Source of the DNA: Patescibacteria group bacterium
Lineage (GTDB): Bacteria; Patescibacteriota; Minisyncoccia; Phycocordibacterales; EsbW-18
Assembly: GCA_038063815.1 (NCBI GenBank)
Contig: JBBTUJ010000005.1
Span: 4,875-68,874 of the forward strand
Direction: 5' to 3'
Length of the DNA: 64,000 bases
The notes under the pieces are model-generated. The model ran no database searches. It had not been told where the DNA came from and saw only the letters and a program-made list of their open reading frames with translations. Shown here piece by piece: positions 18,387-53,631 of this stretch (positions within the stretch are counted from its first letter, which is position 1; each line of letters begins with the position of its first letter). Made by a program: the position numbers and the translations under genes.

Positions 18387-20372
18387 TTACTTCTTTTCCC
18401 GGTCAAACAACTTTTTCAAAACGTGTTCAGGAACTTCAGGAAGTGCTTGTTTCTGTTGAGAAAGATTTGGCGCAGGGGGCACGGGGGCACTCTGGGCAGG
18501 TTTCGGTGAAGGATTCTGGACTGGCGGAGGTGGCGGTGTTTGTTTTACTTCCTGCTTCGGTGGCTGGGATTGTTGTGGTTGTTGTTGTGGTTGGACTTGA
18601 GGAGCTGGTCGTGATGAAGGAGTTTGTTGCACGGGTTCTCGCGGAACAGGGGTTATACCCTCATCCGGGGCAACAGGTTGCTGAAGGACTGCCGCCAACG
18701 CGTCGCGTAAATCTTTCAACCGCTCTTCTGACGGTCCTTTTTCTTTCTTTTGGCGCGCACGCTCTTCTTCTTTAAGGCGCGAAAGAGAAACAGCTTGCCG
18801 AACCCGATCTTCACGATTAGAGAAACCTTTTTGTTTTCCTTCTTCTTGACGGGGTTCTCTTCCCTCCGGAGGTTTTACAGGGCTTCTTTGCTCACTGCGG
18901 GGAATTCCGGACTCCTCTTTTCTCTCCGGTGGCCTGCCGCCACGTTGTTCTCCTCGAAAACTACCTCCACCTCGTTGACCACCACGATCTCCCGAAGAAC
19001 TACCCTCCCGGCGAGGCGGCGGAGCAGAACGCGTCTCAGAGCGTCCGCCGCCTCCTTCTCTTTCCTCTCTACCAAACACCTTTTCGTGCCACGTAATGAT
19101 ATCTTCTTCAACGGGACGTCGTGCTCGGGCAAATTGCTCACGTGAACGAGCGATGGCGACATCGCGGTACGAAACAGCTGGTGACGCGATAGGTCCCAGT
19201 GTTCGCGCGGAAAAAGGAGCAGACGACATACCATCAATCATAAGTTTGAGGTATACCTGCGCAAACCCGAGATTCACGAGATCTTCTGCGGTGAAGAGCG
19301 GTGCGAATTCTTTTTCGAGATACTCGGCGTCCGTCGCACCAACACGGAATGTAATCATCGTTCCGACGTTGCCGAAGACGGCGGCACGCACTTCGTCAGA
19401 CATCTGCTCGATGTACTGATGCGCCATCGTGAGATTCAATTTATATTTTCGCGCCTCCGAGAGGATGTCCGCAAAGGACTCGTTCGCAAATGATTGGAAT
19501 TCATCGACGTAGAGATAAAAGTTCGGCAGTTTATTGAGTTCATCCTCACGCAAGTCGGCGCGTGACATCGCGGCAAGGTAAATCTTTGTGATGAGCATCG
19601 AGCCCAAGAGATTCGCGCTATCTTCACCCACCTGCCCTTTCGAAAGGTTAATGATGAGGATCTTGCGCTGATCCATGATCTCGCGAATGTTAAAAGACGA
19701 TTTCGACTGGCCGACGATATTCCGAATGACAGGATTCGCAGTGAATTGTCCAACTTTGTTCTGGATTGCAGGAGTCGCTTCGGCTGCGAATTTATCGGTA
19801 TATCGTGCAAACTCATCTTCCCAAAATGACTTCACACCAGGGTCAGTCACCGACGCGACCACAGCGGCGCGAAATTCCCTGTCAACGAGCATCCGGTTGA
19901 TTCCCAAAAGCGTTGCGCCTGGGTACTCGAGAAGCGCCAGAATCGTATTGTTCAAAATATATTCCATGCGGGCTGACCACGCATCAACCCAGATTTTCTT
20001 AAATGCAGACATGAGACCCGCCGCAACAAGGTGACGTTTGTCCGGACCAATATCTTCCATCACGTTGAATGAAACCGGATTTGCAAGATCAAACGGTGCA
20101 AAATACACGACATCATTGATACGATGCTCGGGAATGTAGTCAAGAAGAAGGTCAGCGGTCTTGCCGTGCGGATCAATGAAGGCGAATCCTTCGCCGTTCT
20201 GGATATCCTGCACCGCCATGTTCTCAAGCAGAGTTGACTTACCGGTTCCGGTCTTTCCGATGACGTAGACGTGACGCGTCCGGTCCTTGGCTTTAATGCC
20301 AAATTTGACGAGTTTATTCCGGTGGTCGGTCTCGCCGATATATGTGATTCTGTTTGGATCAAAAGAACTCAT
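18387..20372 (-). CDS. soluble VirD4/TraD/TrwB-like (type IV coupling protein-like) P-loop ATPase with RGG/PQ-rich C-terminal tail
   Basis: Walker A VIGKTGTGKSTLL, FIDPHGK, Walker B YLYVDEFQ and ARKYKLNLTMAHQYIEQ. No N-terminal TM helices. About 250 aa low-complexity tail. Paralog of 46202-48943. Confidence 0.6.
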   Translation of the reverse strand: MSSFDPNRITYIGETDHRNKLVKFGIKAKDRTRHVYVIGKTGTGKSTLLENMAVQDIQNGEGFAFIDPHGKTADLLLDYIPEHRINDVVYFAPFDLANPVSFNVMEDIGPDKRHLVAAGLMSAFKKIWVDAWSARMEYILNNTILALLEYPGATLLGINRMLVDREFRAAVVASVTDPGVKSFWEDEFARYTDKFAAEATPAIQNKVGQFTANPVIRNIVGQSKSSFNIREIMDQRKILIINLSKGQVGEDSANLLGSMLITKIYLAAMSRADLREDELNKLPNFYLYVDEFQSFANESFADILSEARKYKLNLTMAHQYIEQMSDEVRAAVFGNVGTMITFRVGATDAEYLEKEFAPLFTAEDLVNLGFAQVYLKLMIDGMSSAPFSARTLGPIASPAVSYRDVAIARSREQFARARRPVEEDIITWHEKVFGREEREGGGGRSETRSAPPPRREGSSSGDRGGQRGGGSFRGEQRGGRPPERKEESGIPRSEQRSPVKPPEGREPRQEEGKQKGFSNREDRVRQAVSLSRLKEEERARQKKEKGPSEERLKDLRDALAAVLQQPVAPDEGITPVPREPVQQTPSSRPAPQVQPQQQPQQSQPPKQEVKQTPPPPPVQNPSPKPAQSAPVPPAPNLSQQKQALPEVPEHVLKKLFDREKK

Positions 20373-26910: not shown

Positions 26911-27257
26911 CGCTTTGCCATCCTCGCGGATGACCATACATGTGTCTTTTCTTTTGTTCCGTTCATACCGGTCTTTCCCGGCTTGTCCGATTGCTTTAAG
27001 GATATTCAATCATAATCCATCACGTACTCAATTGAGGTACATGATATCGACCGCCTTGATCAAGTATTCAAAAACTGAACACTCGACGATTTGTCATTGG
27101 ACAAAATCCACGAGCAGCTTCCGCTACCCGTGCCTTGTTACGCCTTAACCCTAGTCACCGAACTTGCCTTAGAACATGAGAACCATGTGCTTCGGGCATT
27201 CCCGGCTCCTTTGACTTGGCGGGCGGTGAGTACAAGGCTCGAGAACGTATTCACCGT

Positions 27258-27289
<32 letters not shown>

Positions 27290-27452
27290 ACTTCATGAGG
27301 TCGAGTTGCAGACCTCAATCCGAACTGAGGATGGCTTTCTAAGGATTGGCTCGGGATTACTCCGTCGCGACCTGTTGTACCACCCATTGTATCACGTGTG
27401 TAGCCCGAGGCATCAGAGGGACATGCTGACTTGGCGTCATCCCCGCCTTCCT

Positions 27453-27594
27453 CCCAGCACGAAGCGTACGATGTACGCTTCAAGTTAAAAGTTTGTAAAG
27501 TTATAAAGTTTATAAAGTATTTTTTGTATTCACTTTACGAACTTGATGAACTTTTTACTTTCTACTTGAAGCGCTTCACGCGCTTTGTGCTGGG
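27453..27594. repeat. 16S V7 (h40-loop) insertion containing a copy of the AT-rich dispersed repeat, flanked by GC palindromes
   Basis: CCCAGCAC...GTGCTGGG closes the stem. Inside lie GAAGCGTACGATGTACGCTTC and GAAGCGCTTC hairpins plus the AAGTTATAAAGTTTATAAAGT...GATGAACTTTTTACTTT repeat. Confidence 0.6.
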
Positions 27595-28511
27595 CGGTCT
27601 CGTCTGACACTTATAACAGACGATAGGGGTTGCGTTCGTTACCCCACTTAAGGGAACAGCTCAAGCCACGAACTGACGACAGCCATGCATCACCTGTCCA
27701 GCCGCCCGAAGGCTCGTAAAGTTTCCTCTACGATTCGTCTGGATGTCTAGCCTCGGTGAGGTTCTTCGTTTAGCATCGAATTAAACCACATGATCCACCG
27801 CTTGTGCGAGCCCCCGTCTATTCCTTTGAGTTTTAACCTTGCGGTCGTACTACCCAGGCGGATCACTTAACGCGTTAGCTTCGCCTCTCAGAGGGTCGAT
27901 ACTCCGAAAAGCTAGTGATCATCGTTTAGGGCCAGGACTACTGGGGTATCTAATCCCATTCGCTCCCCTGGCTTTCGTGTTTCAGCGTCAGATATATGCT
28001 AGTGTACTGCCTTCGCTTTTGGCGTTCCCCACGATATCAACGGATTTCACCCCTACACCGTGAGTTCCGTACACCCCTCATACTCTCGTAGTTGTACCGT
28101 TTCCCATGCGGATTTCTGGTTAGGCCAGAAGATTTGACACAGGACTAATACAACCGCCTACACACCCTTTACGCCCAATAATTCCGGATAACGCTCGGGG
28201 CTCTCGTATTACCGCTGCTGCTGGCACGAGATTAGCAGCCCCTTATTCATCGGGTACCGTCAAAATTTCTTCCCCGATAAAAGATCTTTACGTCCCGAAG
28301 GACTTCATCAATCACGCGGCGTCGCTCCGTCACACTTTCGTGCATTGCGGAAGGTTCTTGACTGCAGCCACCCGTAGGTGTCTGGACAGTGTCTCAGTTC
28401 CAGTGGTGGGGGTCAGGCTCTCACCTCCCCTACGCGTCATAGCCTTGGTAAGCCATTACCTTACCAACTAGCTGATACGAGGCAGGCCGTTCTAGAAGCG
28501 ATAAATCTTTA

Positions 28512-28646
28512 CCCGCACACTAACTTTGGCATTGTCTTCAGTACGCCGAGATCATTGTCACATTATCTGTGATAACTATTCGGGAATAACGATAATAAAC
28601 CTTCCACACAACTGCCTTCGGCGTAATGCCAAAGTTAGTGTGCGGG
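28512..28646. repeat. 16S V2 insertion forming a 22 bp perfect stem (CCCGCACACTAACTTTGGCATT / AATGCCAAAGTTAGTGTGCGGG), with a partial third copy at 28664-28690
   Basis: A perfect 22 bp inverted repeat encloses 91 nt, with an inner ACGCCGA/TCGGCGT extension. It is absent from E. coli-type V2. Confidence 0.65.
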
Positions 28647-29042
28647 TTTACTCCGATTTGAAGACCATTACAAAGTTAGTGAGCGGGACCATCAGGTATT
28701 AGCCCATCTTTCGATGAGTTATTCCTGACTTCTAGGTACGTTCCCACCCGTTACTACCCCGTTTGCCGGTTGCCCTTGCGGGCCCCCTTGACTTGCATGC
28801 CTTAACCACGCCGCCAGCGTTCATCCTGAGCTAGGATCAAACTCTACATAAGAATCACAAATTGCTTTGTGATTTTTCTGAACGGAACAAAAGAAACAAC
28901 ACATGTATATCGTTCTTTGTTCTTTTTTTCCAGCACGTAGCTCATGCGTGCCGGACTTAGATACTTTACTTGTTTAGGAATAGACGAGTACTCCCAACAC
29001 TTATTCGAGTGCTGGAAAATCTTGTACTCTCTACTTATTTTA

Positions 29043-34742: not shown

Positions 34743-34814
34743 TATACGGCGGCCCGTAGCTCAATGGTAGAGCGGTCGACTTATATTCGATTGGTTGCAG
34801 GTTCGAGTCCTGCC
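34743..34814 (+). tRNA. tRNA with anticodon TAT (tRNA-Ile(UAU)-like)
   Basis: CGGCCCG-TA-GCTC-AATGGTA-GAGC-G-GTCGA-CTTATAT-TCGAT-TGGTT-GCAGG-TTCGAGT-CCTGC-CGGGCCG-A. CCA is not encoded. Confidence 0.65.
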
Positions 34815-34822
34815 GGGCCGAC

Positions 34823-41282: not shown

Positions 41283-41328
41283 AATCTGCTAAAAGCTAGA
41301 CCTAATAAACTTGGCGGGGTTTTTGTTG

Positions 41329-41706
41329 TGGAGATGGGCGGAATCGAACCGCCGTGCAAAAAGGAAATGAAAGCGCATCTACGATACGTAGGACGTTTTG
41401 GTGTTTAAGCGAGTGAACTCAAAAGCGAGCAAAATATTCATACGCCGATCTTCGGTTGATGTAAGACATCCGTCGAAGCGTCCGGATATCCGAAGTCCCA
41501 TAAGGTTACACCCGAGCATGCGTATGAGACATGGGCATGCCGGATGCCGTTAGGCTACTTTGTACGCAAACTGAAAGTCTGCGGCAGTGTAGAACGGACT
41601 AACAACAGAAGTGTTGCCAGTTGTGTGTTCCGAGATTTTAAAGAAGGTCTCGGGCTTCTGTATCGCGCACAGCCACTTATTCTCTTTGTCGAGGCCAGTC
41701 ATCCCC
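41329..41706 (-). ncRNA. ssrA: tmRNA (SsrA)
   Basis: 5' GGGGATGACTGGCCTCGAC (compare GGGGCTGATTCTGGATTCGAC in E. coli). 3' GGCGGTTCGATTCCGCCCATCTCCA, a tRNA-like T-arm and acceptor. A candidate tag ORF reads ...GCAGACTTTCAGTTTGCGTACAAAGTAGCCTAA (ADFQFAYKVA*). smpB is adjacent. Confidence 0.8.
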
Positions 41707-41830: not shown

Positions 41831-42277
41831 TTATTCTCTTTTCAATGAACGCTCGATGTCGCGGTCGCTCTCTCGCTTCTTGAGGTCCTCGCGCTTATCG
41901 TACTTTTTCTTTCCGCGCATGATTCCCAAAGAAACCTTCACGAACCGTCCTTTATTATACACCGATAATGGCACAATTGTCAATCCCTTCTGCCCTTCCG
42001 TTTCGGCGATATGGAGCATCTCTTTTTTGTTGAGGAGGAGTTTCCGCGCGCGATCCGGTTCGTAGTCAATTGGGGTGTTTTTCGGCTGATACGGCGCGAT
42101 TGACATCCCAACGAGAAATACCTCGCCGCCACGTGCTACCGCATGCGCGCCCTCGAGTGACCCTTTGCCGGTCCGGAGCGCCTTCACCTCATATCCCGCA
42201 AGAACGATACCCGCCTCAAGCGTTTCAAGGATGGTATAGTCGCGTCGTGCTTTTCTGTTTTCGATGTATGAGGCCAT
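41831..42277 (-). CDS. smpB: SsrA-binding protein SmpB
   Basis: RKARRDYTILETLEAGIVLAGYEVKALR...GKGLTIVPLSVYNKGRFVKVSLG. Confidence 0.9.
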   Translation of the reverse strand: MASYIENRKARRDYTILETLEAGIVLAGYEVKALRTGKGSLEGAHAVARGGEVFLVGMSIAPYQPKNTPIDYEPDRARKLLLNKKEMLHIAETEGQKGLTIVPLSVYNKGRFVKVSLGIMRGKKKYDKREDLKKRESDRDIERSLKRE

Positions 42278-42305: not shown

Positions 42306-42938
42306 TTATCCTCGTACGTCCGCTGCTGGCAAGTCGCTTTCGTCTAAGCGATAGCTGTACGTCATTTTGTTCTCAAGTTTGTCTTTTTTCGCGAGTTCGA
42401 TAACGCGCGCAACAAGATTCTTCGGGTTGGTATCAAAAATTACTTTATTGTGCGAGCGGTTGCTTCGGTCAAGAATCGTGCGAATCGTTTCGTCCATAAC
42501 CCACTCGCCCTCAAGAACACCGATTGGCTTGTTGTCTTCAAATGCGATTGTAAATTCATGAATAGTACCAATGCGTCCACATCCGAAGATGACCGCGTCT
42601 CCCGAGCGCGTCAAAATCAAATCGCGTCCTGAGTATCCGAATCCGGTATAGACAATCAGGTCCATGTAATCAACCGGGAGACGATACGCTTCGATGTGTT
42701 CGCGTTCAGATGCCGCTGGAGAGATACCGATCGATTGTCCACCCGCCTCAACAGCACCGATTGCCGCCCACAGAGGAAATCCTGTTGTCGCACCCGTCAC
42801 GATTGTGGCACCTTGTCGTGCGATTTCACGCCCCGTTTCTTTCGCGACCTCAAATGCGCGCGGACCACACTTCGATGTTTCGGCAGCGCCTGAAACACAG
42901 ATCTTTATCTGGCGATGTTTATGCGGATCGTATGTCAT
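42306..42938 (-). CDS. Rossmann-fold SLOG/LOG-like (TIGR00725-type) protein
   Basis: ICVSGAAETS...GATIVTGATTGFPLWAAIGAVEAGGQSIGISPA pattern. Confidence 0.45.
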   Translation of the reverse strand: MTYDPHKHRQIKICVSGAAETSKCGPRAFEVAKETGREIARQGATIVTGATTGFPLWAAIGAVEAGGQSIGISPAASEREHIEAYRLPVDYMDLIVYTGFGYSGRDLILTRSGDAVIFGCGRIGTIHEFTIAFEDNKPIGVLEGEWVMDETIRTILDRSNRSHNKVIFDTNPKNLVARVIELAKKDKLENKMTYSYRLDESDLPAADVRG

Positions 42939-42963: not shown

Positions 42964-43038
42964 CAAGTTTATCAAGTTGAAAGTTATAACGTTACAAGTA
43001 ACTTGATGAACTTTATAACACGGCGAACCTGATGAACT
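42964..43038. repeat. AT-rich dispersed palindromic repeat copy between the LOG-like and MBL-fold genes
   Basis: CAAGTTTATCAAGTTGAAAGTTATAACGTTACAAGTAACTTGATGAACTTTATAACACGGCGAACCTGATGAACT. Confidence 0.6.
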
Positions 43039-44401
43039 ATTCGAGGTCGAACGTCTGCCCGAGTTCGGGATATACGGCATCTACTCCGAGATAATCACGC
43101 AAACGTTGCACAAAAAATTGTGACGCGCGCGGCTCTCCCATTGTGACAAATACCTTTTTGAGCGTGTGGCCTGTCGCCGTAACGAACGCCAAGAGCCCGT
43201 CAACATCGCGATGTCCAGAGAATCCGTGTATCTTTTCTATCTGTGCTCGAACTTGAATTTTTTCTCTTCCAATCGTGACGCTCTTTGCCCCATCCTCCAG
43301 CTGTCGTCCCAAGGACCCCGGTGACTGGTACCCGACAATCAGAAGCGCATTTTTCGGATCACTCAAATAGTGTTTCTCATGACTCACCACCCGTCCTCCG
43401 TGAGACATTCCTGATCCCGCGATGATGATCTTCGGCCCGGGAACCTTTGCAAGCACGTCCGACTTTTCTTTTTCCGAGATAAGGGTCAATTCTGGGAACG
43501 AGAACAGTTTTTCTCCCCGTGCGATTGTTTCTTGTGCTGTCTTATTGAAAATGTCAGATGAGTGTTCATAGATGTGCGTTGCTTTGATCGCCAAGGGCGA
43601 GTCGAGATATACAGGTATCCGCGGGATACGTCCCGCCTTGAGAAGCGCGTGGAGTTCATACAGCACAAGCTGTGAACGTTCAACAGAAAATGCCGGAATG
43701 AGAAGCGTTCCTTTACGCGCCGCGACTTCATTGATAACACTCTCGAGACGCGCGGTCCGATCTTCTCCCGTTTCGTGCCGCCTATCACCATAGACGCTCT
43801 CAATAACGAGGTATGACGCGCTATCGACGATGTCCGTATCGCGAAGAAGGAGTGATGGCGAATTCCCCAAATCACCACTGAAAACGATTGTCCCTGCGGT
43901 GGGATGCGTCGCGAGAACAAGGGCCGACCCAAGGACGTGTCCTGCGTCTTTGAGCGTTATCGAGAAATCACCTATTGAGAACGGCTCATAGTACGGCACC
44001 CCTTTCCAGAGAGGGAACGCCGCTGCAACGTCGGCCGGCTCGTATGGTGGCGTGGTTCCGCATGCAGCCGCCTCGCCAGCGAGAAGATGTGCGGCGTCAA
44101 CGAGAAGAATCTCTGCGAGTTCTTTTGTCTGAGGCGTCGAATAGATCACTCCCTTGAAACCATCCCTCACGAGCTTTGGAATACGGCCGATGTGGTCGAT
44201 ATGTGTGTGCGTGACAATAAGCGCGTCGATATCTTTAGGTTCGTACGGAAAATCCTCGTAGTTTTTCTCATCACACACACGTCTTCCCTGGAAAAGTCCG
44301 CAGTCAACGAGAATCTTCTTCCCGCCGCCCTCCAAAAGAAAGTTTGCGCCCGTCACCGAGCCAACGCCGCCGTAAAATGTAAGTTTGGGAGAAGTGCTCA
44401 T
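43037..44401 (-). CDS. MBL-fold metallo-hydrolase with beta-CASP domain (RNase J / CPSF-like ribonuclease)
   Basis: HTHIDHIG motif and the overall beta-lactamase plus beta-CASP pattern. Likely start MSTSPKLTFYGG at 44401. Confidence 0.7.
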   Translation of the reverse strand: MSTSPKLTFYGGVGSVTGANFLLEGGGKKILVDCGLFQGRRVCDEKNYEDFPYEPKDIDALIVTHTHIDHIGRIPKLVRDGFKGVIYSTPQTKELAEILLVDAAHLLAGEAAACGTTPPYEPADVAAAFPLWKGVPYYEPFSIGDFSITLKDAGHVLGSALVLATHPTAGTIVFSGDLGNSPSLLLRDTDIVDSASYLVIESVYGDRRHETGEDRTARLESVINEVAARKGTLLIPAFSVERSQLVLYELHALLKAGRIPRIPVYLDSPLAIKATHIYEHSSDIFNKTAQETIARGEKLFSFPELTLISEKEKSDVLAKVPGPKIIIAGSGMSHGGRVVSHEKHYLSDPKNALLIVGYQSPGSLGRQLEDGAKSVTIGREKIQVRAQIEKIHGFSGHRDVDGLLAFVTATGHTLKKVFVTMGEPRASQFFVQRLRDYLGVDAVYPELGQTFDLE

Positions 44402-44820
44402 ACAAGAGGTGAAGTTTTTCTGTGTGTAAAGATACCTCTCATCAGATACGCCGCGCACCATGCCCCTGTCATGTCCATTGCCAGATCAACCACTGTATCT
44501 GCGACAATATTTTTCTGCCCCGCAAACATCCCTGTTGCATACTCGAATATCTCCCACCCGATACCGGTTATCAATACCGCAAGTACAATTTGAAAAAAGT
44601 ATGGAAACTTTCCAAAAAATGTCTCGAACCGAAAATATCCCCACGCGGCACATCCGCCAAGCGCAAAACCACTAAGAAAATGCAACGGGGCGAAACACCA
44701 GGGACAGGTCAGGTCTAAAGAATACTTGAGCATTACTTCCTGCACTATAAAAACAAGCCCGACAACAAGAAAAAGGGCAAGGAGCGTGGTTCCAAATCGC
44801 ATCGGCATGATGGTAGACAT
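44398..44820 (-). CDS. VanZ-like family membrane protein
   Basis: Four TM helices with a VanZ-like pattern. The start is uncertain and was taken at MSTIMPMRFG. Confidence 0.45.
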   Translation of the reverse strand: MSTIMPMRFGTTLLALFLVVGLVFIVQEVMLKYSLDLTCPWCFAPLHFLSGFALGGCAAWGYFRFETFFGKFPYFFQIVLAVLITGIGWEIFEYATGMFAGQKNIVADTVVDLAMDMTGAWCAAYLMRGIFTHRKTSPLV

Positions 44821-44830
44821 TTTATCAGAA

Positions 44831-44858
44831 ACAAAAAATCCCCGCTTGAGCGGAGATT
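44831..44858 (-). terminator. rho-independent terminator (AUCUCCGC-UCAA-GCGGGGAU followed by U6)
   Basis: Minus RNA reads AUCUCCGCUCAAGCGGGGAUUUUUUG. Confidence 0.5.
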
Positions 44859-45117
44859 CTTTGTTGGGGGTTATTTCAGACGTGACCCTAGCGTAAACTA
44901 GGTGGGTGTCCTCAGTACGTGAGCCGAAGCGCACGGTTTAAAACAATTCGGACTCCCTTAAAAATTTATTTGATCTAGATTATATCCAAAATAACCCCTA
45001 CGAACATGGTACGCCTCTCCGTGAAAAGGACGCAAGGGGGATATCGCGACGGAATACGGATTTGACTCTCTGTAAAAGAGATTTTGCTACCAAAAAAACT
45101 CTCCCGCCAAAGTATTC

Positions 45118-46173
45118 TTAAATACCAAGCGCTTTTGGAAGTTGCTTCAGGAGTGTCACAACCGCGGGTGGTGCCAGTAAGCTGTGCACCTCATCTCCTT
45201 CATCGTCAAGAATGGTCCAAGGGGACTCTTTGGTGACCGCCTTCAATCCGTCCCATTCGTATGTGTACATAGGAGTAATCTCGTAGTCGTCAAAATATTT
45301 TTTCACGTCTCCGACAGGGACCGCGTTGCGTACCAACACCTTCGGAATACCGTGAAGCGAGAGAAGCTTGTCGATAAGTTCTCCATCACGCACCAAACGA
45401 TCTTTAATGGGTGCAATTCCTTCCGCATCTCCTTCTTTTGGACCCATACGCACCCCATGATCGTCACAGAGAAGGTGAAATGTCTCTGTTACTGCATCAC
45501 GTTCGACATTCTTCGTCGGAAAGAGCTTCGTATTACGCGGCGTTTGGCAGACAGGACAGATAACGCGGAACTTCATGCGCTCATCGATGACTGCTGTCGG
45601 CACGTCAATCGCAATAAAGATGTCTGGGTCTTGTCGGTAGTCCACGAGGTCTCTGAAAAAGAGCGCGTATGAGATTTGATCGAGATCGCGCGGAAAACCA
45701 TCGAGAAAAAGTGTCTTCTTTGGCAGTGCGCTGATTTTTTGTTTCACCAACGCGAGGATGAATTCTGTCGGAAGAAGTTTTGTTTGGCTTTTGCCAATAA
45801 GTGCATCAACCGCATCTTCTAGAGAAATGTATCCGCGATAGAGAGATCGAAGTGATTCTGTAAACGCTTCTTTATCTTTTGTTGCCGCTTCGTGCGCAGC
45901 ACGTACGGTATCCCCAACAGAGATGTGTTCGATGAGATCGTTTCCGAAGATCTCGGCCATCATTTTTGTGTACGTTCCCTTCCCCGCACTCTTTTTTGCA
46001 AGAAGGTATGCAATGAATGTGTTGTCTTTGAAAAAGTCCTTGAGCGCACGGATTTCCGCGCCCGCTTTCGCTTCAAAATATTCTTTACGACCTTCCGGCG
46101 TTGAAAGATCAAACACTTTGGTCACGCCTTCTACCCTTGTTCCCTGCATGGGAAATTCTTTTGTATATTTCAT
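45118..46173 (-). CDS. adenylate kinase-family (NMP kinase) paralog with N- and C-terminal extensions
   Basis: P-loop LLAKKSAGKGTYT, LDGFPR motif and a LID with CPVC...CDDHG. It is about 100 aa longer than the canonical adk at 52993-53631. Start taken at MKYTKEF. Confidence 0.55.
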   Translation of the reverse strand: MKYTKEFPMQGTRVEGVTKVFDLSTPEGRKEYFEAKAGAEIRALKDFFKDNTFIAYLLAKKSAGKGTYTKMMAEIFGNDLIEHISVGDTVRAAHEAATKDKEAFTESLRSLYRGYISLEDAVDALIGKSQTKLLPTEFILALVKQKISALPKKTLFLDGFPRDLDQISYALFFRDLVDYRQDPDIFIAIDVPTAVIDERMKFRVICPVCQTPRNTKLFPTKNVERDAVTETFHLLCDDHGVRMGPKEGDAEGIAPIKDRLVRDGELIDKLLSLHGIPKVLVRNAVPVGDVKKYFDDYEITPMYTYEWDGLKAVTKESPWTILDDEGDEVHSLLAPPAVVTLLKQLPKALGI

Positions 46174-46201
46174 AGAAAAAACACTATAGCACACCTTCCG
46201 T

Positions 46202-48943
46202 TTAGAGATGGTATTTTTCCCCAATTTCTCGCTCCACCTCAGCCCGAGGACGTCCATGGCGCTCAAATGATTCCCGGGCGAGTATTTCCGCGCGAGCACG
46301 ATCGAACTTCGGCGGTGATACCGTCTCAACATTAAAGGGACGTTCCGGGCGACCGTTTGAAAGAAGGCGCAAAAAGGCATTCCTGTTGTCGACGTTCATG
46401 AGATCAGATGCCGTGAACACCGGTGTGAATTGTTTCTCAAGGTACTCCGCGTCATCACTTCCGACACGGAACGCTGCAATTGAGCCCACGTTCCCAAAGA
46501 CCGCATCACGTATTTTTTCATCAAGTTGTTTGATGAACTGGTGAGCGACCGTCAGAGACAGGCGGTATTTCCGTGCCTCAGAGAGAATCGTTGCGATTGA
46601 ATCCGTCGTGACATTCTGAAACTCGTCGATGTAGAGGAAGAAGTCAGGCCGTTCTCCAGCTTCCGCATCAACACGCGAGAGTGATGCCATCAAAATCTTC
46701 CCGACAATGATGAGACCCAAAAGATTCGCATTGATGTCACCCAAGCGGCCCTTCGAGAGATTCACCAGAAGAATCTTCCGTTCGTCCATGATACGACGGA
46801 AGTCGAATGCGGACGTTTTTTGAACAACGATCGGACGCATGATGTCATTCGCGAGGAAGACATCGAATTTCGATGTTATGTAGGGCACAATGTTCGCGAG
46901 AGATGCTTCTCCTCCCGCTTTTTCCGCGACATCACGCCAGAATTGGACAATAATCGGGTTCTTGCAGCGAGAGAGCTTGAGCTCGCGATATGTTTTGTCA
47001 GACATCACACGCGACACGTCAAACAATGTGTTTCCTGTTTCTGGGTCCTCGATGACAAGCATCGTCGCATTCCGGAAATACTGCTCAAACATTGGGCCCA
47101 TCGATTCGGGAACTTTTCCGTAGAGTTTTTGGAAGATAGAAAAGAGCTCGTTCACCACGAACGTCTTCTGCTCCGGATGTGCTGGGTCATACTCGAGCAT
47201 ATTGAGCCCCATCGGACGGTCAACCTGCGAAGGGTCAAAATAAATGACATCATTTCGCCTCTCATCCGGCACGGCCGAGAGGATATCAAAAACGTCGTTC
47301 CCGTGCGGATCAATCATGCAAACCCCGTCGCCATTCGCGATATCTTGGACAATCATGTTCTTGAGTAACGTCGTCTTTCCTGTTCCCGTCTGACCAATCA
47401 CGTACAAGTGCCGCATGCGATCCTCCGGCGTAAAGAATATCTGTGTCTCTGCATTCCTGTATCGATTGATACCAAGCAAAACCCCCTCATGCGGAAGATC
47501 CACAGGGGCGGGCGCGCTTCCGGCCTTTGAACGCTTAAGCTCTCGGGACGATTCGACTCCCGTTGCAGGAAAGTGAAATACCGTTGCAAGTTCCCTGATG
47601 TTGAGAGGGAGTACGAGATCACTCTTGAAGTATCGATAGGTGAAGTCGCGAATGAACTCCTTAAGACCTCGCGAGGAGACACGTACAAATTTGAATTTAT
47701 TTCCCTTTCCCTCTTCAAACTGATTAAATGTTGCCTCCAGATCAGAAAGGATTACTTCACTTCGTGATTCACCACCCGAGGAAGCAAGGAGGCGGATATT
47801 CGTTTCAAGAACGGGGTGTGAAATTTTTTGTTTAATCGATTCAAGTGCAACGTCGTCAATGACTTTCTGCTCTTTTTCTTTTTCTTTCTCGTCCTTCTTT
47901 TTCGACACAAAAAACTCTTTGAACCCTTTGGCGATGTCTTTCACGACCGACTCGTCCGCAAGCGCCTTTTTGAGTTTCTCGCCTTTTTGGAGACGTGTGA
48001 TGACGCGTTTGTATTTCTCCGTATATGAATCGCCTGCGGGTTTGACGACGATTTGAAGCGCCGCCCCTTCTCCTACCCGTGAGAGTTTTGCAAAAGCGGA
48101 GAGTGTGATATTCAAAGGATCATAATCGAGTGTCTCAAATGTCTTCAGGGGAAAAGCGGCGGGGCGAAGAAGCGTTGCGAAGGAAGCCGCAACAGAACCG
48201 TCAGGAACAAAGACGTTGTAGTCGTTCTTTGTTTCAACAAGACGTGCCTGAGGAAAAATCGAGAGAAGTTGTTTTTCAAAGAGTTCTCGTTTTTCGACCG
48301 GTACCGCACAAAAAAGCGTTGCGTGCTCGTGACTCGCTTCTACGGCAAGTTCAAGCGTAAAGTATGCAGACCTCGAGGCCTGTGCCGCAACAGAAGAGAG
48401 TCCGGCGTAGAGTTGTTCCATTGACGAGAGAAGTTCTTTAAGCGGCCTTCGGTCTTCTTTCTCGCGCGCTCCAATAGGAAGAGAGACCTCGAAAAGCGTC
48501 ATGTGAAGCGCTTTCCACATCTCGGACTTTTGCGAAACACCATCTGCCGCGTAGCCCTCTTTCAGATATTCAGCAAGAAATCGGTGAAAATCGTCCGCAA
48601 GGTGTGGGTTGTCGAGTTTTGAGAGAACAGAGAGCGCGTTCCTGACACCTCTCTCGCGCATAATCGAGAGAAGTTCGCTTATCTGTTCATCGTGTTCCTC
48701 GGGCTGAAGATCAAGTACAATCGCGTCAATTTCGGGTTTAAGCATCGCATGACCTTTTTCAAGGACATGTTCCGGGTGGTGTTTTGTATATGCTGCAACA
48801 AGATTCTCGGCTGCCGCTTCGGGCCCGCTCGCTTCCGCAGATGTCATTCCTTTCTCAAGTTCCCGTAGACGCTCTCGCAAAAAAGTTGCCTCCTCGTCAG
48901 GTGTTTTGAATTTTGCTTCAGGCGTAACGCTGAATCGTTCCAT
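46202..48943 (-). CDS. VirD4/TraD/TrwB-like P-loop ATPase with about 480 aa unique N-terminal domain (paralog of 18387-20372)
   Basis: Walker A YVIGQTGTGKTTLL, MIDPHGN, Walker B FLYIDEFQ and ARKYRLSLTVAHQFIKQ. No TM segments. Confidence 0.6.
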   Translation of the reverse strand: MERFSVTPEAKFKTPDEEATFLRERLRELEKGMTSAEASGPEAAAENLVAAYTKHHPEHVLEKGHAMLKPEIDAIVLDLQPEEHDEQISELLSIMRERGVRNALSVLSKLDNPHLADDFHRFLAEYLKEGYAADGVSQKSEMWKALHMTLFEVSLPIGAREKEDRRPLKELLSSMEQLYAGLSSVAAQASRSAYFTLELAVEASHEHATLFCAVPVEKRELFEKQLLSIFPQARLVETKNDYNVFVPDGSVAASFATLLRPAAFPLKTFETLDYDPLNITLSAFAKLSRVGEGAALQIVVKPAGDSYTEKYKRVITRLQKGEKLKKALADESVVKDIAKGFKEFFVSKKKDEKEKEKEQKVIDDVALESIKQKISHPVLETNIRLLASSGGESRSEVILSDLEATFNQFEEGKGNKFKFVRVSSRGLKEFIRDFTYRYFKSDLVLPLNIRELATVFHFPATGVESSRELKRSKAGSAPAPVDLPHEGVLLGINRYRNAETQIFFTPEDRMRHLYVIGQTGTGKTTLLKNMIVQDIANGDGVCMIDPHGNDVFDILSAVPDERRNDVIYFDPSQVDRPMGLNMLEYDPAHPEQKTFVVNELFSIFQKLYGKVPESMGPMFEQYFRNATMLVIEDPETGNTLFDVSRVMSDKTYRELKLSRCKNPIIVQFWRDVAEKAGGEASLANIVPYITSKFDVFLANDIMRPIVVQKTSAFDFRRIMDERKILLVNLSKGRLGDINANLLGLIIVGKILMASLSRVDAEAGERPDFFLYIDEFQNVTTDSIATILSEARKYRLSLTVAHQFIKQLDEKIRDAVFGNVGSIAAFRVGSDDAEYLEKQFTPVFTASDLMNVDNRNAFLRLLSNGRPERPFNVETVSPPKFDRARAEILARESFERHGRPRAEVEREIGEKYHL

Positions 48944-49007
48944 GTGCCCTTATTCTATCATTCCTTCGAATGATAGCTGCCTCTTTTTTAAATGAAGCGC
49001 GTGAGAC

Positions 49008-49226
49008 CTACTCTTCTGCGAGCGCCTTTTTGAACGCGAGGAGGTCCTTTTGGGCTTCCAACTTGTTCTCCATTCCTTCCGCAAAAGCGGCCATTACTAT
49101 TTTTTTCTGCATATCCTCAGGAAAAGAGGAGAAGTGTTCTCGTAGAAACATCTTCGCTTTTTCTTCGTCTCCTTCGCGGAGGATCTTTCTAAAATCCTCA
49201 AATAACTTTGTTGTATCAGGGTTCAT
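49008..49226 (-). CDS. hypothetical small helical protein
   Basis: 72 aa ORF between the 990 aa protein and the ATPase, with a tight spacing of 19 nt. Confidence 0.35.
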   Translation of the reverse strand: MNPDTTKLFEDFRKILREGDEEKAKMFLREHFSSFPEDMQKKIVMAAFAEGMENKLEAQKDLLAFKKALAEE

Positions 49227-49245
49227 GATTGTTGGAGAAATTATC

Positions 49246-52218
49246 CTACTTTAAGTTTTTTGGACCAAAAAAGTCTTTGCACAAGAGGCCGATGATAGAA
49301 GCCCAGAATCCTCCTGTTTGAGGAAAATTGTGCTTTTTCTTGTAGTCCGCCTCAAACGCAGACCGTGCCGTATTTCGTTGCTTACCAGCAGGCATTTTGT
49401 CCCATTTGACTGATTTTTTGTATGTCTCCCATTCCTCCTGAACACCCTCTTCGTCGGGAACAGCGTCGGAGAGCTCCGCGAGAGATACTCTTTTTACTTT
49501 CTCACCGCCAACAACCTTCTCTTTATAGAGCGCTGTCGTGAGCGCTTCGCGCATACGTGGGTCATCAGAGACAAGCGTCGCGATGAATGATCCATTCTCT
49601 TGCATGATACGCGCTCGCTCAGTTCGCAGTCCTTCAAACGTGTCGGCGTGTGCGGATGTCGCTTCCGCCGCACTACGTCTTCCAAAAAGCGTTACGGTTT
49701 TTTTAAACCATCCCATTTCCGAAGAAAATGCTGTACGAAGGGCTTTCTCTCGCTCAGCAGGATCGGTATTGCCCATTGCTTCTACAACGGCGGCAGGTGA
49801 CGAGAGGCCATATTTCGCACACATTTTTTGTATGGACTCATTTACGGGCGCAGCACTTTCCTCAATCTGGACAAGCTCATCATGCCTGCTCGCAAGCTCC
49901 TGAAACTCGTCCGGAGATGCAATCGCCTTATCAATGACTCCTGCTCGTATAATCTTTCGAAGCGCGGGGAGGCCAACAACAGATCGCAAATCTTCAAGCT
50001 CTTCGGAGTATAGTGCGAGTTCAGTAATCTCATCGTCGCTCAGTGCTTCGTTCAGTTTTTCTCCGCTTTCTTTTCGCTGAAGATACTCCTCTCGGTGTTG
50101 TGCGAGCTGTGTCATGTCATCTGGTTCGAGAGTGCGTGAAAGCATCCTTTCACCAAGTGCCGCCACCTCAGGATCTCCAAATGAGTCGAGCATCTGACCA
50201 AATTGTTCCGCCTCTTTTGCAAGGATATCGGCAAGGGTCGGCCTTGCGTCAACCTCTTCACGACGTGCGCTTCCTGCATCTTTCTGTTCTGCATACATTC
50301 TAAATGGATTTTCTGGACTCATGGGGTGTGTATTTTTAATAGTATATGAATTCGTATCTAGTGTACCTCGATGCCTAGGCGTGTCAATTCTGCCGGCAGC
50401 ACTAAGAGGTGTGCCCACCGATGGATTTCGTTTCCGTGTTGTTCGTTCTGTTTTTTTGGGCACTTCCGGTGGTTCTTCTGGAACAGTTTCGCTCGTCATC
50501 ACAACTGGTGGCGTGGTTGGTGCTGTTTCTGTCGAAACGATAGGCGGAGGAACCTCTCGTGTTGGCAGAACCGAATTATTTTCAGGTAACCCTGTGGTTG
50601 GTTGGTGTGGAGGTGTTTCCGATAAAGGGGTGACTTTTTTTGCTTCACCTCTTTGTGGCGCCTGTGATGGTGTTTTTGTTGATTCCGTATCAATAACGGG
50701 TACCTCCACAATGACAGTCCTTGATTTCTTTTCTCCCTTGAAAGAAATCTCGAGATTCCCGTTTTTAATTGTCACGTCATCAATTTGTTCTGGGTATTTT
50801 CCTTGAAGATGCTGTCGGATTTTTGGAATTAAAGATGGAAGGGCTGACTCAAGGGCCGGCTTAATAACAGCTCTTTTAAGAAAAGATGCGTCAATATCAT
50901 AACCCGCTACCGACAGCCCACGCCCACCACCCTGAATCCTCGCGGAAAGACCGAATGCGCCCGCAAGATTGTGTCGTAGCTTTGCCGTCAGGTCTATCGT
51001 ATTACTGTGTCCATTCACCAAAAGGGTGTCCACCGTGGCAAGTCCGCTTAGTAATGACTTAATTTCTAATTGTATCTCACTCGGCGTGAGTACAGCGTTT
51101 TCCCTTTTTACCATTTCCTCAACGACCCTCTCGACTTTTTGCGTCAGTGGCGTGGTTGGTGCTGTTTCTTTTTTACGAACCCGCGGTTGTTTTTGTGGAG
51201 CTTCCAGACCAATGACGGGCTTCGGGGTCTCAGTGCTTGGCGGTTGAACATTTTTGTTCTGAAATCGTTTAGCCCGCGACTCAACAGTCGCCGCGTCAGT
51301 AACCAATGACTCCATCCCAGAACGAACCCGTATGCTTTGCGCATCAAGAGATTCCTTACCTCCCGATTGCACCATAGCAACAGGCGAGACGGGCATCATT
51401 TCAACAATCCTTCGTAACTTTGCGGCGGACTCTCTTCTTTGCTCCACGGTGCTTTGGTCATCTGCAAAAACACGTGCAAGTTCTGGAATACTCCGTATGT
51501 ACCCGCGTATTTCAGCTCGTGCCTTTTTGGTACGCGTTGTATCCATCTCAAGTTTTTCGAGCATGTTGAGAGCATACCTCTCCGCAACAGATGGGTCAGC
51601 GATAATCGCATCGGTCTCGTATTTAAAATGGTGGGCAAGGTCTATTAACCTCTGCTTCTCCCTCCTTTCGGCGTTATCACGAACAGGGTGTTTCTGCGAA
51701 GAATTCGCCTTCTTGCTTTCTCCTCGTGTTTCTTGTTCAGATTTTTCTTTTTTACGAGGTTTTTCTGCAGGCCTTTCGGGAAGTGTGGGTGGTGGAAGTG
51801 CCACATCTTCCCTTCCGCCCGGTCTTCGGCGCTGGCTTTCTCTTCGTTCACTATCACGCGTACTCCTCTTGCGCGATGTTCTTTGACGATCAATCGACGC
51901 AGGCGCATCGCTTCCATACACTTCAAGTTCACTTTCGACGAGGGGTTCAGTGGGTTTTTCTTGCCTACTCTTTTCAACATGACGCACTGCCTCCAAGAGT
52001 GCTTCGGTAAACGTTGTCTGTTCGGACGTGAGCGTTGGCTGTTCTACCTCGACCGCTTGGGCAGCATCGATCGCATCTCTGAGATCTTGTTGTTGTTCGA
52101 GCGAAAGCGGCTTCACGTCAGCGTCAACTCCTTCCAAAGGTGTTTCTGCGCGATGCTCACTATCGTCCCCTCCCGGAACGTTTGGTGGTGGAAATTGATT
52201 AACATCTTCAGGACTCAT
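49246..52218 (-). CDS. large hypothetical protein (990 aa), largely charged/low-complexity with Pro/Thr-rich linkers
   Basis: A long uninterrupted ORF that starts 8 nt after the map stop. No TM helices and no recognisable domain. Confidence 0.55.
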   Translation of the reverse strand: MSPEDVNQFPPPNVPGGDDSEHRAETPLEGVDADVKPLSLEQQQDLRDAIDAAQAVEVEQPTLTSEQTTFTEALLEAVRHVEKSRQEKPTEPLVESELEVYGSDAPASIDRQRTSRKRSTRDSERRESQRRRPGGREDVALPPPTLPERPAEKPRKKEKSEQETRGESKKANSSQKHPVRDNAERREKQRLIDLAHHFKYETDAIIADPSVAERYALNMLEKLEMDTTRTKKARAEIRGYIRSIPELARVFADDQSTVEQRRESAAKLRRIVEMMPVSPVAMVQSGGKESLDAQSIRVRSGMESLVTDAATVESRAKRFQNKNVQPPSTETPKPVIGLEAPQKQPRVRKKETAPTTPLTQKVERVVEEMVKRENAVLTPSEIQLEIKSLLSGLATVDTLLVNGHSNTIDLTAKLRHNLAGAFGLSARIQGGGRGLSVAGYDIDASFLKRAVIKPALESALPSLIPKIRQHLQGKYPEQIDDVTIKNGNLEISFKGEKKSRTVIVEVPVIDTESTKTPSQAPQRGEAKKVTPLSETPPHQPTTGLPENNSVLPTREVPPPIVSTETAPTTPPVVMTSETVPEEPPEVPKKTERTTRKRNPSVGTPLSAAGRIDTPRHRGTLDTNSYTIKNTHPMSPENPFRMYAEQKDAGSARREEVDARPTLADILAKEAEQFGQMLDSFGDPEVAALGERMLSRTLEPDDMTQLAQHREEYLQRKESGEKLNEALSDDEITELALYSEELEDLRSVVGLPALRKIIRAGVIDKAIASPDEFQELASRHDELVQIEESAAPVNESIQKMCAKYGLSSPAAVVEAMGNTDPAEREKALRTAFSSEMGWFKKTVTLFGRRSAAEATSAHADTFEGLRTERARIMQENGSFIATLVSDDPRMREALTTALYKEKVVGGEKVKRVSLAELSDAVPDEEGVQEEWETYKKSVKWDKMPAGKQRNTARSAFEADYKKKHNFPQTGGFWASIIGLLCKDFFGPKNLK

Positions 52219-52226
52219 ACAAAAAA

Positions 52227-53027
52227 TTATACACCCTCTGTCAAAATCTCGGGGGCACCGCTCGTGATAAGAATCGTGTGCTCGAACTGGGCTGTGCGAG
52301 AGCCGTCTTTCGTACGATACGTGTATCCGTCGTCCGCAAGAACTATTTCTGTTCCGCCTTCGGAAACAGTTGGTTCGATTGTAATGACCATTCCAGGAAT
52401 GAGTTCAGCTCCTGTTCCCTTTCTCCCGAAGTGAAAAATATGCGGTGCCTCGTGTACGCTATGTCCAACACCATGTCCTCCCAAATCAGGCACAACGGAG
52501 AATTCCGTACCCTTGAGGGATGATTCAATCGCTTCCCCGATATCTCCGAGGTGTGCACCGCCACGCGCCGCGGCAATACCTGCATCACGCGCTTTTTCCG
52601 CCTCTGCAATAAGCCGAGTCCCCCGTTCATCAAGAGCGCCAACGGAAATGGTCACGCACATGTCTGTTATAAGACCCTTGTGTGTCAAACCGGTATCAAG
52701 CGAAACAATATCTCCTTCCTTGATGACCTCGGTATGTTCTTCGGGAACCCCGTGAACCGCTTCGTCGTTTACTGACACGCAGAGAGTTGCGGGATACGGA
52801 TGTTTTGCGCCCGCCGGTTTGTAATTCAAAAATGCTGGGACGTCGCCACCTTCGGTGATAAGACGATGCGCGAGAACATCTAATTCACGCGGATGAACTC
52901 CGGGCGCGACTGCATCCTCGATTTTTCGCACAACAGCCGCCAAACGTCGCCCCCCTTCACGGAGAATCTCAATCTCTTCTGGTGTTTTTATCTTACTCAT
53001 GGAGAGTCGAAGGAAACAATTCTTCAA
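52227..53027 (-). CDS. map: type I methionyl aminopeptidase
   Basis: HGVGHSVHEAPHIFHFG...GMVITIEP, the metal-ligand pattern. Confidence 0.9.
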   Translation of the reverse strand: MKNCFLRLSMSKIKTPEEIEILREGGRRLAAVVRKIEDAVAPGVHPRELDVLAHRLITEGGDVPAFLNYKPAGAKHPYPATLCVSVNDEAVHGVPEEHTEVIKEGDIVSLDTGLTHKGLITDMCVTISVGALDERGTRLIAEAEKARDAGIAAARGGAHLGDIGEAIESSLKGTEFSVVPDLGGHGVGHSVHEAPHIFHFGRKGTGAELIPGMVITIEPTVSEGGTEIVLADDGYTYRTKDGSRTAQFEHTILITSGAPEILTEGV

Positions 53028-53631
53028 ATTTCTTCATGATTTCTTCGTGGATCTTCTCGATCGAACCTTCACCATTAATCTGTACGAGATGTCCCTTGTC
53101 GTTGAAAAACTCAAGTGACTTCTCCGTATGTTTTTTGTATTCTTCCATCCGTTCCAAAAGCGTCTCGTCCGTATCATCTGTCCTATTCTCCTTGCCCGCT
53201 CTCTTTTCGATACGATCTTTCATCTCTCCATCGCTTACCTCCAGTGAAAACACCTTATACGGACGCTCAATCCACTCAAGAACGCCGTGGAATAATTCGG
53301 CTTCTTTTAACTGGCGCACAGCACCATCGATGATGAGACCTTGCGACAGAGGGTGAGAGAATATCTCGTCGAGCCACAAATGCATGATGAGCCATGCCGG
53401 AAGCAGGTGGCCGTGATCCATTATCTTCAAAATCTTTTCGCCGACGTGTTTATTCTCCGCAGCAAAAGACCGAAGTCCGCCGCTTGTTTTAAAAAGAGAA
53501 AAACCCGTTTTTTTAGAAAACATCTCTGCCTGAGTTCCCTTTCCTGACCCGGGTTTCCCCAAAAAGACGATTATAGGTGCGTTCATAACAAAGAGTATAC
53601 CCGAGCACGCTTTAAAAAGCATGAGATGCAA
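52993..53631 (-). CDS. adk: adenylate kinase
   Basis: IVFLGKPGSGKGTQAEMF and the LID region. Confidence 0.9.
   Translation of the reverse strand: MHLMLFKACSGILFVMNAPIIVFLGKPGSGKGTQAEMFSKKTGFSLFKTSGGLRSFAAENKHVGEKILKIMDHGHLLPAWLIMHLWLDEIFSHPLSQGLIIDGAVRQLKEAELFHGVLEWIERPYKVFSLEVSDGEMKDRIEKRAGKENRTDDTDETLLERMEEYKKHTEKSLEFFNDKGHLVQINGEGSIEKIHEEIMKKFEELFPSTLHE

Follow-up and report, generated by a model that had tools for sequence, protein, structure and literature searches.

Why does the ribosomal-protein operon of a Patescibacteria genome run on past map, its last canonical gene, into genes for a VirD4/TraD-like ATPase and a nucleotide kinase? Patescibacteria account for a large share of bacterial diversity, do not synthesize their own nucleotides and depend on hosts. 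We analyzed this question in a stretch of 64,000 nucleotides (contig JBBTUJ010000005.1 of assembly GCA_038063815.1, positions 4,875 to 68,874; hereafter the window), whose open reading frame (ORF) list gives the minus-strand order L15, secY, adk, map, p990, p72, ATPase and AK-like, the last encoding an adenylate kinase (AK)-like nucleoside monophosphate (NMP) kinase. An earlier reading of the same DNA, the original prediction, had taken the last four genes for one dedicated machine. Our analysis favors, with a likelihood slightly better than even, three separately conserved, loosely linked modules appended to the tail of the Patescibacteria spc-secY-adk-map operon, with the orphan ATPase in a housekeeping role. 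The most secure statement concerns the ATPase itself, which is a hybrid of VirB4 and type IV coupling protein (T4CP) without a transmembrane (TM) segment, inherited as a near-core gene.

Passages of a recent study (Quinonero-Coronel et al. 2025, PMC12102498) count 5,713 VirD4-type homologues in 2,918 Patescibacteria genomes, about two per genome and with no function assigned, and place 148 of them near virB4. In these passages the authors do not rule out exaptation of the orphan homologues.

A VirB4/T4CP hybrid without a membrane anchor

Sequence matches of the 913-aa ATPase to known families were confined to residues ~485-850. Three Pfam models of the motor scored above their cut-offs (T4SS-DNA_transf, 32 bits against 20.1; TrwB_AAD_bind, 23.4 against 20.5; TraG-D_C, 23.3 against 22), and a sequence/profile search of the PDB matched TrwB and DotL only, with no VirB4 chain among the matches. 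The motor is an FtsK/HerA-type nucleotide-binding domain that carries Walker A and B motifs together with T4CP signatures. Curated TraD/VirD4 models mostly matched the P-loop region rather than the full length, and the NCBIfam T4CP models stayed far under their cut-offs (TIGR03743, 54.8 against 366 bits; NF045973, 33.4 against 250). The VirB4_CagE model TIGR00929 gave 16 bits against a cut-off of 643, which argues against a VirB4-type motor. Pfam FtsK_SpoIIIE reached 17.9 bits, under its cut-off of 24 and on the P-loop only, and the ATPase lacks the membrane domain plus alpha/beta/gamma translocase domains that characterize FtsK/SpoIIIE.

Hydropathy analysis found no TM segment in the ATPase. 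No hydrophobic 19-mer occurs in residues 1-700, and the sole segment above threshold, residues 737-755, lies inside the motor core, showing that the N-terminal TM anchor of T4CPs is missing.

The N-terminal domain of about 480 aa, described as unique in the original prediction, proved to be Pfam PF26449 (DUF8128). The AlphaFold2 (AF2) model of residues 1-480 (pLDDT 79) is a soluble alpha/beta domain, and all 14 of the 14 Foldseek matches at E <= 1e-3 were TrwK chains, at an identity of 9-11% between DUF8128 and the VirB4 N-terminal domain. Because no P-loop domain falls within the modelled piece, whose beta-alpha-beta-beta-alpha-beta pattern is not RecA-like, the match should be to the N-terminal domain of VirB4, to which, we infer from the model, DUF8128 corresponds. 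Among solved structures this fold is found only in VirB4, and PDB entries put the domain in an inner-membrane complex with VirB3, VirB6 and VirB8. No paper found by literature search mentioned DUF8128. Taken together, these results identify the ATPase as a hybrid of VirB4-like architecture and T4CP-like motor sequence; what survives of its earlier description as VirD4/TraD-like is the motor.

The window holds a paralogous ATPase, the "first" ATPase of the earlier reading (18387-20372), which is 41% identical to residues 484-899 of the 913-aa protein. It consists of a motor domain only, followed by an RGG/PQ-rich disordered tail of ~240 aa; TM segments are absent from it. Locus L023 has a comparable second copy, 8.5 kb from the DUF8128 ATPase.

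Conservation and neighborhood of the ATPase

Over their full length, homologues of the ATPase share 51-85% identity with it. A search of bacterial genomes sampled at one per species gave more than 595 matches, every one of them labelled Patescibacteria or Parcubacteria-type. We analyzed the neighborhoods of 83 ATPase loci, with flanks of at most 10 kb. The map gene lay 5' of the ATPase in 36 of them, a gene for nucleoside diphosphate kinase (NDK) lay 3' in 37, and 31 had both. The gap from map to the ATPase varied from 19 nt to 6.9 kb, and in at least 13 loci the ATPase began within 150 nt of map, leaving no space for a cassette between the two. Loci without map or NDK had heterogeneous, unrelated neighbors. 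A rough neighbor-joining tree suggests that map-ATPase-NDK is a widespread and probably ancestral order. The ATPase has passed down vertically as one of the near-core genes of the class, rather than with a mobile type IV secretion system (T4SS).

A scan of 58 immediate-neighbor ORFs of related loci turned up neither T4SS nor relaxase families, and the ten largest of the remaining window ORFs included no T4SS component, relaxase or VirB4-sized ATPase. The scanned neighbors thus show neither the linkage to a relaxase or T4SS that is typical of T4CPs nor the virB3, virB6 and virB8 genes that accompany virB4; p72 occupies the place equivalent to virB3 but has no hydrophobic segment.

These observations bear on the strongest alternative, that the ATPase is the working coupling or energising ATPase of a Patescibacteria T4SS encoded elsewhere, docking on VirB3/VirB8-like parts, and that its position after map is incidental. 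We consider this possible but rather unlikely. The T4CP-like motor is what such a partner would carry, and the VirB4-type docking domain keeps the idea alive; moreover, T4CP genes are frequently distant from virB4, according to passages of PMC12102498, and in locus L170 a gene pair related to p990 and p72 lies 2 kb from five T4SS_pilin genes. Against it stand the missing TM anchor, the neighborhoods and window ORFs free of T4SS genes, and the core-gene-level conservation in housekeeping synteny. The same source passages also report that in S. epibionticum the T4SS is essential whereas a T4CP homologue, which may or may not be of the DUF8128 type, is non-essential.

A kinase slot behind the ATPase

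Most often, the ATPase is followed by NDK (37 of 83 loci), and an AK-like gene stands in its place in at least three clades: the window with L081, L166 and L167; L096-L101 with L114 and L117-L119; and L086. One or the other follows the ATPase in about 50 loci, which makes the pairing of a nucleotide kinase with a translocase-like ATPase, pointed out in the original prediction, a recurrent pattern. No locus had both kinases after the ATPase, and no NDK gene was found elsewhere in the 64-kb window. L167, with an AK-like and a NUDIX gene, and L082, with NDK, are sister taxa. This alternation, sister taxa included, suggests that the slot switches repeatedly between two nucleotide phosphate kinases. 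Adenylate kinase can reportedly stand in for NDK activity in E. coli (Lu and Inouye 1996), and given such a substitution the swap would be functionally sensible.

The NUDIX hydrolase gene of L167 (9071-9547) lies between the ATPase and the AK-like gene or beside the latter, and in L098 two unannotated ORFs of 152 and 176 aa (8797-9815) lie between the ATPase and the AK-like gene. The kinase slot appears to collect extra genes.

The AK-like protein and the divergent adk of the spc operon

The most likely start of AK-like is the ATG at 46173, which yields the family's conserved N-terminus (MKYTKEFP) and a protein of 351 aa; the public start is 46149 (343 aa), and the full 420-aa ORF (45118-46380) would overlap the ATPase. 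The protein belongs to a phylum-wide family of ~355 aa with 55-73% identity, found in Wolfebacteria, Kaiserbacteria, Moranbacteria and others. It matched Pfam ADK with 47 bits (cut-off 26.8), and its best NCBIfam match, TIGR01351, remained below equivalog level (69.8 against 168 bits).

The P-loop, NMP-binding motif, GFPR motif and LID arginines of adenylate/NMP kinases are all present in AK-like. Invariant in 33 members are K59, K60, G63, K64, G65, T66, R90, R161, R198, R202, K245, G247, D248 and R258 (numbering omits Met1), and the invariant motifs comprise the P-loop lysine, HISxGDxxR, DGFPRxLDQ and the LID arginines. The Gln four residues past the GFPR arginine, which reads adenine in AKs, is invariant as well. 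The LID had been predicted to hold four cysteines; we saw three (CPVC ... LLC) followed by D-D-H, with an invariant CxxC...C-D site. The ~140 extra residues noted earlier are real and consist of an N-terminal helix, a YRGY insertion and a C-terminal domain. Hydropathy revealed no TM-like segment in AK-like.

The AF2 model of AK-like (pLDDT 90) matched 119 PDB chains in Foldseek at E <= 1e-3, and all 50 of the 50 matches listed were adenylate kinases. The long adenylate kinases matched at E = 2e-9, with a target-normalised TM-score of up to 0.69, and the model has the CORE, NMP-binding and LID domains of the AK fold.

In metagenomic AK-like loci the ATPase lay upstream in 11 of 80, many of those contigs being short. 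Away from the ATPase, the upstream neighbor was an MBL-fold (metallo-beta-lactamase) protein of ~289 aa in 24 of the 51 loci with a readable upstream neighbor (loci L088-L165), and an M16 peptidase in ~10; the former suggests a pairing of nuclease or hydrolase with NMP kinase. Because the family is phylum-wide, mostly encoded away from the ATPase and often beside an MBL-fold hydrolase, AK-like is, judged by its sequence family, a conserved enzyme in its own right and not the surplus paralogue that it had been taken for.

The adk gene of the spc operon itself (adk212, 212 aa) is the more divergent copy. It scored 90 bits with Pfam ADK (cut-off 26.8) and fell under every NCBIfam adenylate-kinase cut-off (131.7 against 187). 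Its median identity to 42 orthologues was 28%, compared with 60-80% for secY, and its motif is DGxPRxxxEA, not GFPRxxxQ, with Glu at the position of the adenine-reading Gln. The specificity of adk212 may have changed. Given that adk212 evolves fast and lacks this Gln, the role of main AMP kinase in these organisms may fall to the long AK-like protein.

p990 and p72 form a two-gene cassette

The original prediction had described p990 as almost entirely low-complexity. This holds for residues 1 to ~620, which are rich in E, R, K, P and T, but residues ~640-986 form a conserved domain, so that p990 is a disordered extension of 620 aa fused to a conserved domain of ~360 aa (p990C). An exhaustive phmmer search with residues 621-990 against 1.84 billion representatives yielded 200 homologous clusters at E <= 1e-3, of which 84 at E <= 1e-10, and the p990C hidden Markov model (HMM) match spans residues 639-986. 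A word-indexed search with full-length p990 found no match, a misleading result, low-complexity words having probably swamped the prefilter. Homologues of residues 1-620 were not detectable, family members matching the C-terminal part only. Neither Pfam nor NCBIfam matched p990, and TRF found no tandem repeats in it. Most members of the p990C family are stand-alone proteins of 350-390 aa; one, of 995 aa, has a layout like that of p990.

A C-terminal motif of p990C, a K/R-rich stretch followed by GFWAxIFxxLF, is conserved in 98 of 139 aligned members and is too short for a TM helix. A reading of this motif as an amphipathic helix found no support, as its median hydrophobic moment (0.26) was not above that of other 14-mers of the same proteins. 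Hydropathy gave no TM segment in p990, as had been predicted, or in p72, and TM anchoring was rejected for both proteins and for the ATPase.

A p72-like gene was present 3' of the p990C-family gene in all seven of seven loci (the window, L098, L168, L169, P0397, L170 and L171). Homology of the small ORF to p72 was confirmed by sequence in six of them; the P0397 locus has an 85-aa ORF. The pair lies directly upstream of a DUF8128 ATPase in the window and in L098, and probably also in L169, where the next gene begins MERKLFPHIPEVKVTPD and its first 24 codons are on the contig. In the other four loci the pair occurs without the ATPase. A remote homologous pair was recognised, by profile-profile comparison only, upstream of the ATPase in L025, L068, L070, L071 and L080 (hhalign probabilities 75% and 78%, E ~2e-5). 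The upstream family of L001, L002, L003 and L082 was rejected as a relative (hhalign probability <1%). Pfam assigned no family to p990C-family members, to the L025-type and L001-type upstream proteins or to the p72 homologue of L098.

Within the 83 ATPase loci, tblastn and phmmer searches with p990, p72 and AK-like found only the AK-like gene of L081, and the p990C and p72 family HMMs found only L098. In L081, the closest relative (ATPase 85% identical), p990 and p72 are absent; only a 107-aa ORF lies between map and the ATPase, and it has no detectable similarity to either protein.

Sortase genes lie near the pair among the L168, L170, L171 and P0397 loci. In L171 the pair stands in the ribosomal operon after L5, near PilB/PilT/PilC genes, and is followed by an opposite-strand gene. 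Together with the pilin genes of L170, these surroundings point tentatively to a link with the cell surface or with pili. Between L5 and S14, the ribosomal operons of L081 (2550-2861) and L082 (1938-2789) contain hypothetical genes that differ in size.

We then have to ask whether p990, p72, the ATPase and AK-like could still be one four-part machine, in which the kinase supplies or regenerates the nucleotides that the translocase uses. This seems unlikely to us. The distant locus L098 does have map, a p990C homologue, a p72 homologue, the ATPase, the two inserted ORFs and AK-like in a row, and the frequency of a kinase after the ATPase, as well as the substitution reported from E. coli, would fit such a machine. 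However, the quartet is not conserved in relatives: L081 has the ATPase and AK-like without p990 and p72, the closely spaced map-ATPase loci leave no room for the pair, and the pair itself is found away from such an ATPase. Likewise, AK-like genes stand behind MBL-fold genes elsewhere, and about half of the ATPase loci have no NDK or AK-like gene nearby. A dedicated four-gene machine is therefore not supported as a conserved unit.

Layout of the locus and other features of the window

The ORFs, spacing, motifs and terminator of the original prediction held with small corrections, the four ORFs lying on the minus strand as described (Table 1). The intergenic gaps are 8 nt between map and p990, as claimed, 19 nt between p990 and p72, 64 nt between p72 and the ATPase, and 28 nt from the ATPase to AK-like, counted to its start at 46173. 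The public annotation GCA_964355065.1 (locus L084, the same Patescibacteria metagenome-assembled genome, of Paceibacteria type) lists these genes as well, with p990 and p72 recorded as "hypothetical protein". The map gene is the final canonical gene of the spc-secY-adk-map operon.

Table 1. Coordinates of the locus and of neighboring features, in positions of the window
Feature	Position	Strand	Basis or remark
map, methionine aminopeptidase	52227..53027	-	Pfam Peptidase_M24 E = 4.6e-40; L084 gene call; public start 53000
adk212, short-type adenylate-kinase-family gene of the spc operon	52993..53631	-	Pfam ADK 90 bits; public start 53586 (197 aa)
p990	49246..52218	-	ORF; hypothetical protein, disordered N-terminal extension and conserved C-terminal domain; NCBI MEK7579347.1
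p990 residues 1-620, E/R/K/P/T-rich	50359..52218	-	composition, hydropathy
p990 residues 639-986, p990C domain	49261..50304	-	phmmer, HMM match
p990 C-terminal basic/hydrophobic motif GGFWASIIGLLCKDFF	49267..49314	-	consensus K/R...GFWAxIFxxLF
p72, small protein	49008..49226	-	homologues directly 3' of p990C-family genes
913-aa TM-less ATPase	46202..48943	-	DUF8128 VirB4-like N-terminal domain and T4CP-like (TrwB/TraD/VirD4) motor
ATPase residues 1-480, DUF8128: helical bundle, then alpha/beta subdomains	47504..48943	-	
ATPase residues 481-913, P-loop motor domain	46202..47503	-	Pfam; PDB sequence matches
ATPase Walker A GQTGTGKT, residues 517-524	47372..47395	-	(nearly) invariant, 20 homologues
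ATPase Walker B region LYIDEFQ, residues 770-776	46616..46636	-	D773, E774, F775, Q776 invariant
Long AK-like NMP kinase, 351 aa	45118..46173	-	Pfam ADK, family motifs, AF2, Foldseek
Intrinsic-terminator-like hairpin and U tract	44830..44865	-	folding energy
DUF2238 membrane protein	44398..44808	-	PF09997 in L084
MBL / beta-CASP / RMMBL hydrolase	43037..44401	-	Pfam Beta-Casp 1e-33, Lactamase_B, RMMBL; synteny
SLOG cluster-4 (LDcluster4) protein	42306..42938	-	Pfam PF18306 5.7e-33; synteny
Paralogous T4CP-like ATPase, 661 aa	18387..20372	-	Pfam TrwB_AAD_bind, T4SS-DNA_transf

A hairpin followed by a U tract lies ~250 nt past the AK-like stop codon on the coding strand, ahead of the DUF2238 start. 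A consensus terminator scan missed it, and direct folding confirmed it (-21.5 kcal/mol, z = -5.0 versus shuffles), so that the predicted clean terminator appears to be a real intrinsic (Rho-independent) one. It is the sole terminator of this run of genes. Because the genes are tightly packed on one strand and a terminator stands only after AK-like, read-through from the spc operon is plausible. Of the earlier claim of cotranscription with the ribosomal superoperon, this much stands; the genes from map to AK-like would then be co-transcribed.

Downstream, a DUF2238 homologue separates the kinase slot from the MBL gene in 17 loci. The MBL/beta-CASP/RMMBL hydrolase, of a type that Pfam ties to RNA-specific metallo-hydrolases, is a conserved member of the synteny block, as are the DUF2238 and SLOG genes.

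The T4CP-like domain and the variable gene content between map and the ATPase might recall what is left of an integrated element, conjugative or mobile, 3' of map, but we rejected this very improbable reading. GC is uniform over the region (0.48-0.50), and deep clades share the insertion point and flanking order, as fits vertical inheritance. Neither an integrase nor a relaxase nor a flanking tRNA was found (the nearest RNA gene, for tmRNA, lies ~3.4 kb past the AK-like stop), and TRF found no tandem repeats in 45000-52300, dispersed direct and inverted repeats being outside that search.

Elsewhere in the window, the tmRNA gene (41326-41706, minus strand; predicted tag GNTSVVSPFYTAADFQFAYKVA) adjoins smpB (41831-42277). 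A 16S rRNA match at 27096-28852 on the minus strand is 1757 nt long compared with a 1533-position model, with an insertion of ~220 nt. ARAGORN placed a tRNA-Ile with anticodon TAT at 34750-34822 on the plus strand; a tRNA-Ile with this anticodon is an unusual bacterial way of reading AUA.

Discussion

On the observed identity, architecture, conservation and recurrence of the parts, we favor three modules behind map. The first would be the ATPase, a soluble motor with a P-loop that belongs to the VirB4/VirD4 branch of the FtsK-HerA superfamily. As its Walker A and B motifs are intact, it should hydrolyze ATP, and by analogy with TrwB and VirB4 it should assemble into an oligomeric ring and pull or push a polymer. 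Since it has no membrane anchor of its own, it would dock through its N-terminal domain. The second module would be the kinase slot, filled by NDK in most lineages and by the long AK-like protein here, followed by DUF2238, the beta-CASP hydrolase and the SLOG protein. The third would be the p990C and p72 genes, a mobile two-gene cassette that in some lineages lies between map and the ATPase and that, here with its disordered extension, may serve as an optional adaptor.

Housekeeping synteny, core-like conservation and the nucleotide-handling genes downstream lead us to favor a role of the ATPase that is independent of a T4SS locus. Most likely, this is an exapted housekeeping role, and the most likely such role would be nucleic-acid handling, in register with the nucleotide-salvage genes downstream.

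Several points weigh against this explanation. About half of the ATPase loci have neither map nor NDK. The alternation of NDK and AK-like could reflect a recombination-prone slot instead of functional coupling, and the conserved gene order could be phylogenetic inertia in streamlined genomes, without functional meaning. The argument for co-transcription consists of spacing and a single terminator, and a nucleic-acid substrate of the ATPase is a guess. Furthermore, the normal docking sites of VirB4-type N-terminal domains are VirB3/VirB8 of a T4SS, which would favor the T4SS partner discussed above.

A more specific proposal, which we regard as quite improbable, is that the ATPase is a T4SS-independent VirB4/VirD4 hybrid that handles nucleic acid at the membrane and is wired to a salvage chain. 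Docking would be provided by the VirB4-like domain and, where present, by the p990C/p72 adaptor pair, and the chain would lead from the beta-CASP hydrolase to an NMP kinase or NDK, accompanied by NUDIX and SLOG proteins. If this were true, the ATPase would help nucleotide-auxotrophic Patescibacteria to convert acquired nucleic acid into nucleoside triphosphates, and the NDK/AK-like swap would be a non-orthologous displacement within one pathway.

The locus gives the orphan VirD4-like ATPases a concrete anatomy, in which one class combines a VirB4-type N-terminal domain with a T4CP-type motor and has no membrane anchor. This class passes down in the manner of a core gene where the ribosomal-protein operon ends, and behind it come nucleotide kinases that can replace one another and a hydrolase of nuclease type. 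"Exapted for something" can now give way to testable hypotheses, a T4SS partner versus a housekeeping nucleic-acid motor. Three more widely conserved uncharacterized families are flagged as well: the long AK-like kinase, the p990C family and its p72 partner.

Comparison with known systems

The orphan Patescibacteria T4CP homologues of PMC12102498 are very probably the same gene set as the two ATPases of the window, as far as passages of that paper describe them; these passages mention no DUF8128/VirB4-like domain, missing TM anchor, map-ATPase-NDK/AK synteny or p990C/p72 cassette. With type IV coupling proteins (TrwB of R388, TraD, VirD4 and DotL) the ATPase shares the P-loop motor signatures. 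Unlike them, it has a VirB4-like domain of 480 aa in place of the N-terminal TM anchor and is a chromosomal near-core gene in housekeeping synteny, with no relaxase or T4SS neighbors seen. In comparison with VirB4/TrwK, the signature ATPase of T4SSs, its motor is nearer to T4CPs by sequence, and no virB3, virB6 and virB8 stand alongside.

AK-like resembles the long-type Zn-LID adenylate kinases (Bacillus subtilis Adk, PDB 1p3j; E. coli Adk) in GKGT, HISxGDxxR, LLPTEF..AL.K, DGFPRxLDQ, the LID arginines, CxxC...C-D and the fold (E ~1e-9). It differs from them in being ~140 residues longer, with an N-terminal helix, a beta-rich C-terminal domain of ~90 aa and a 20-aa insertion with invariant YRGY in the NMP-binding domain, in the replacement of the first P-loop glycines (AKKSAGKGT), and in scoring under the NCBIfam adenylate-kinase cut-offs. 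Finally, the canonical L15-secY-adk-map order of the bacterial spc operon tail is kept in the window, but here the operon is extended with lineage-specific genes and its adk copy is unusually divergent.

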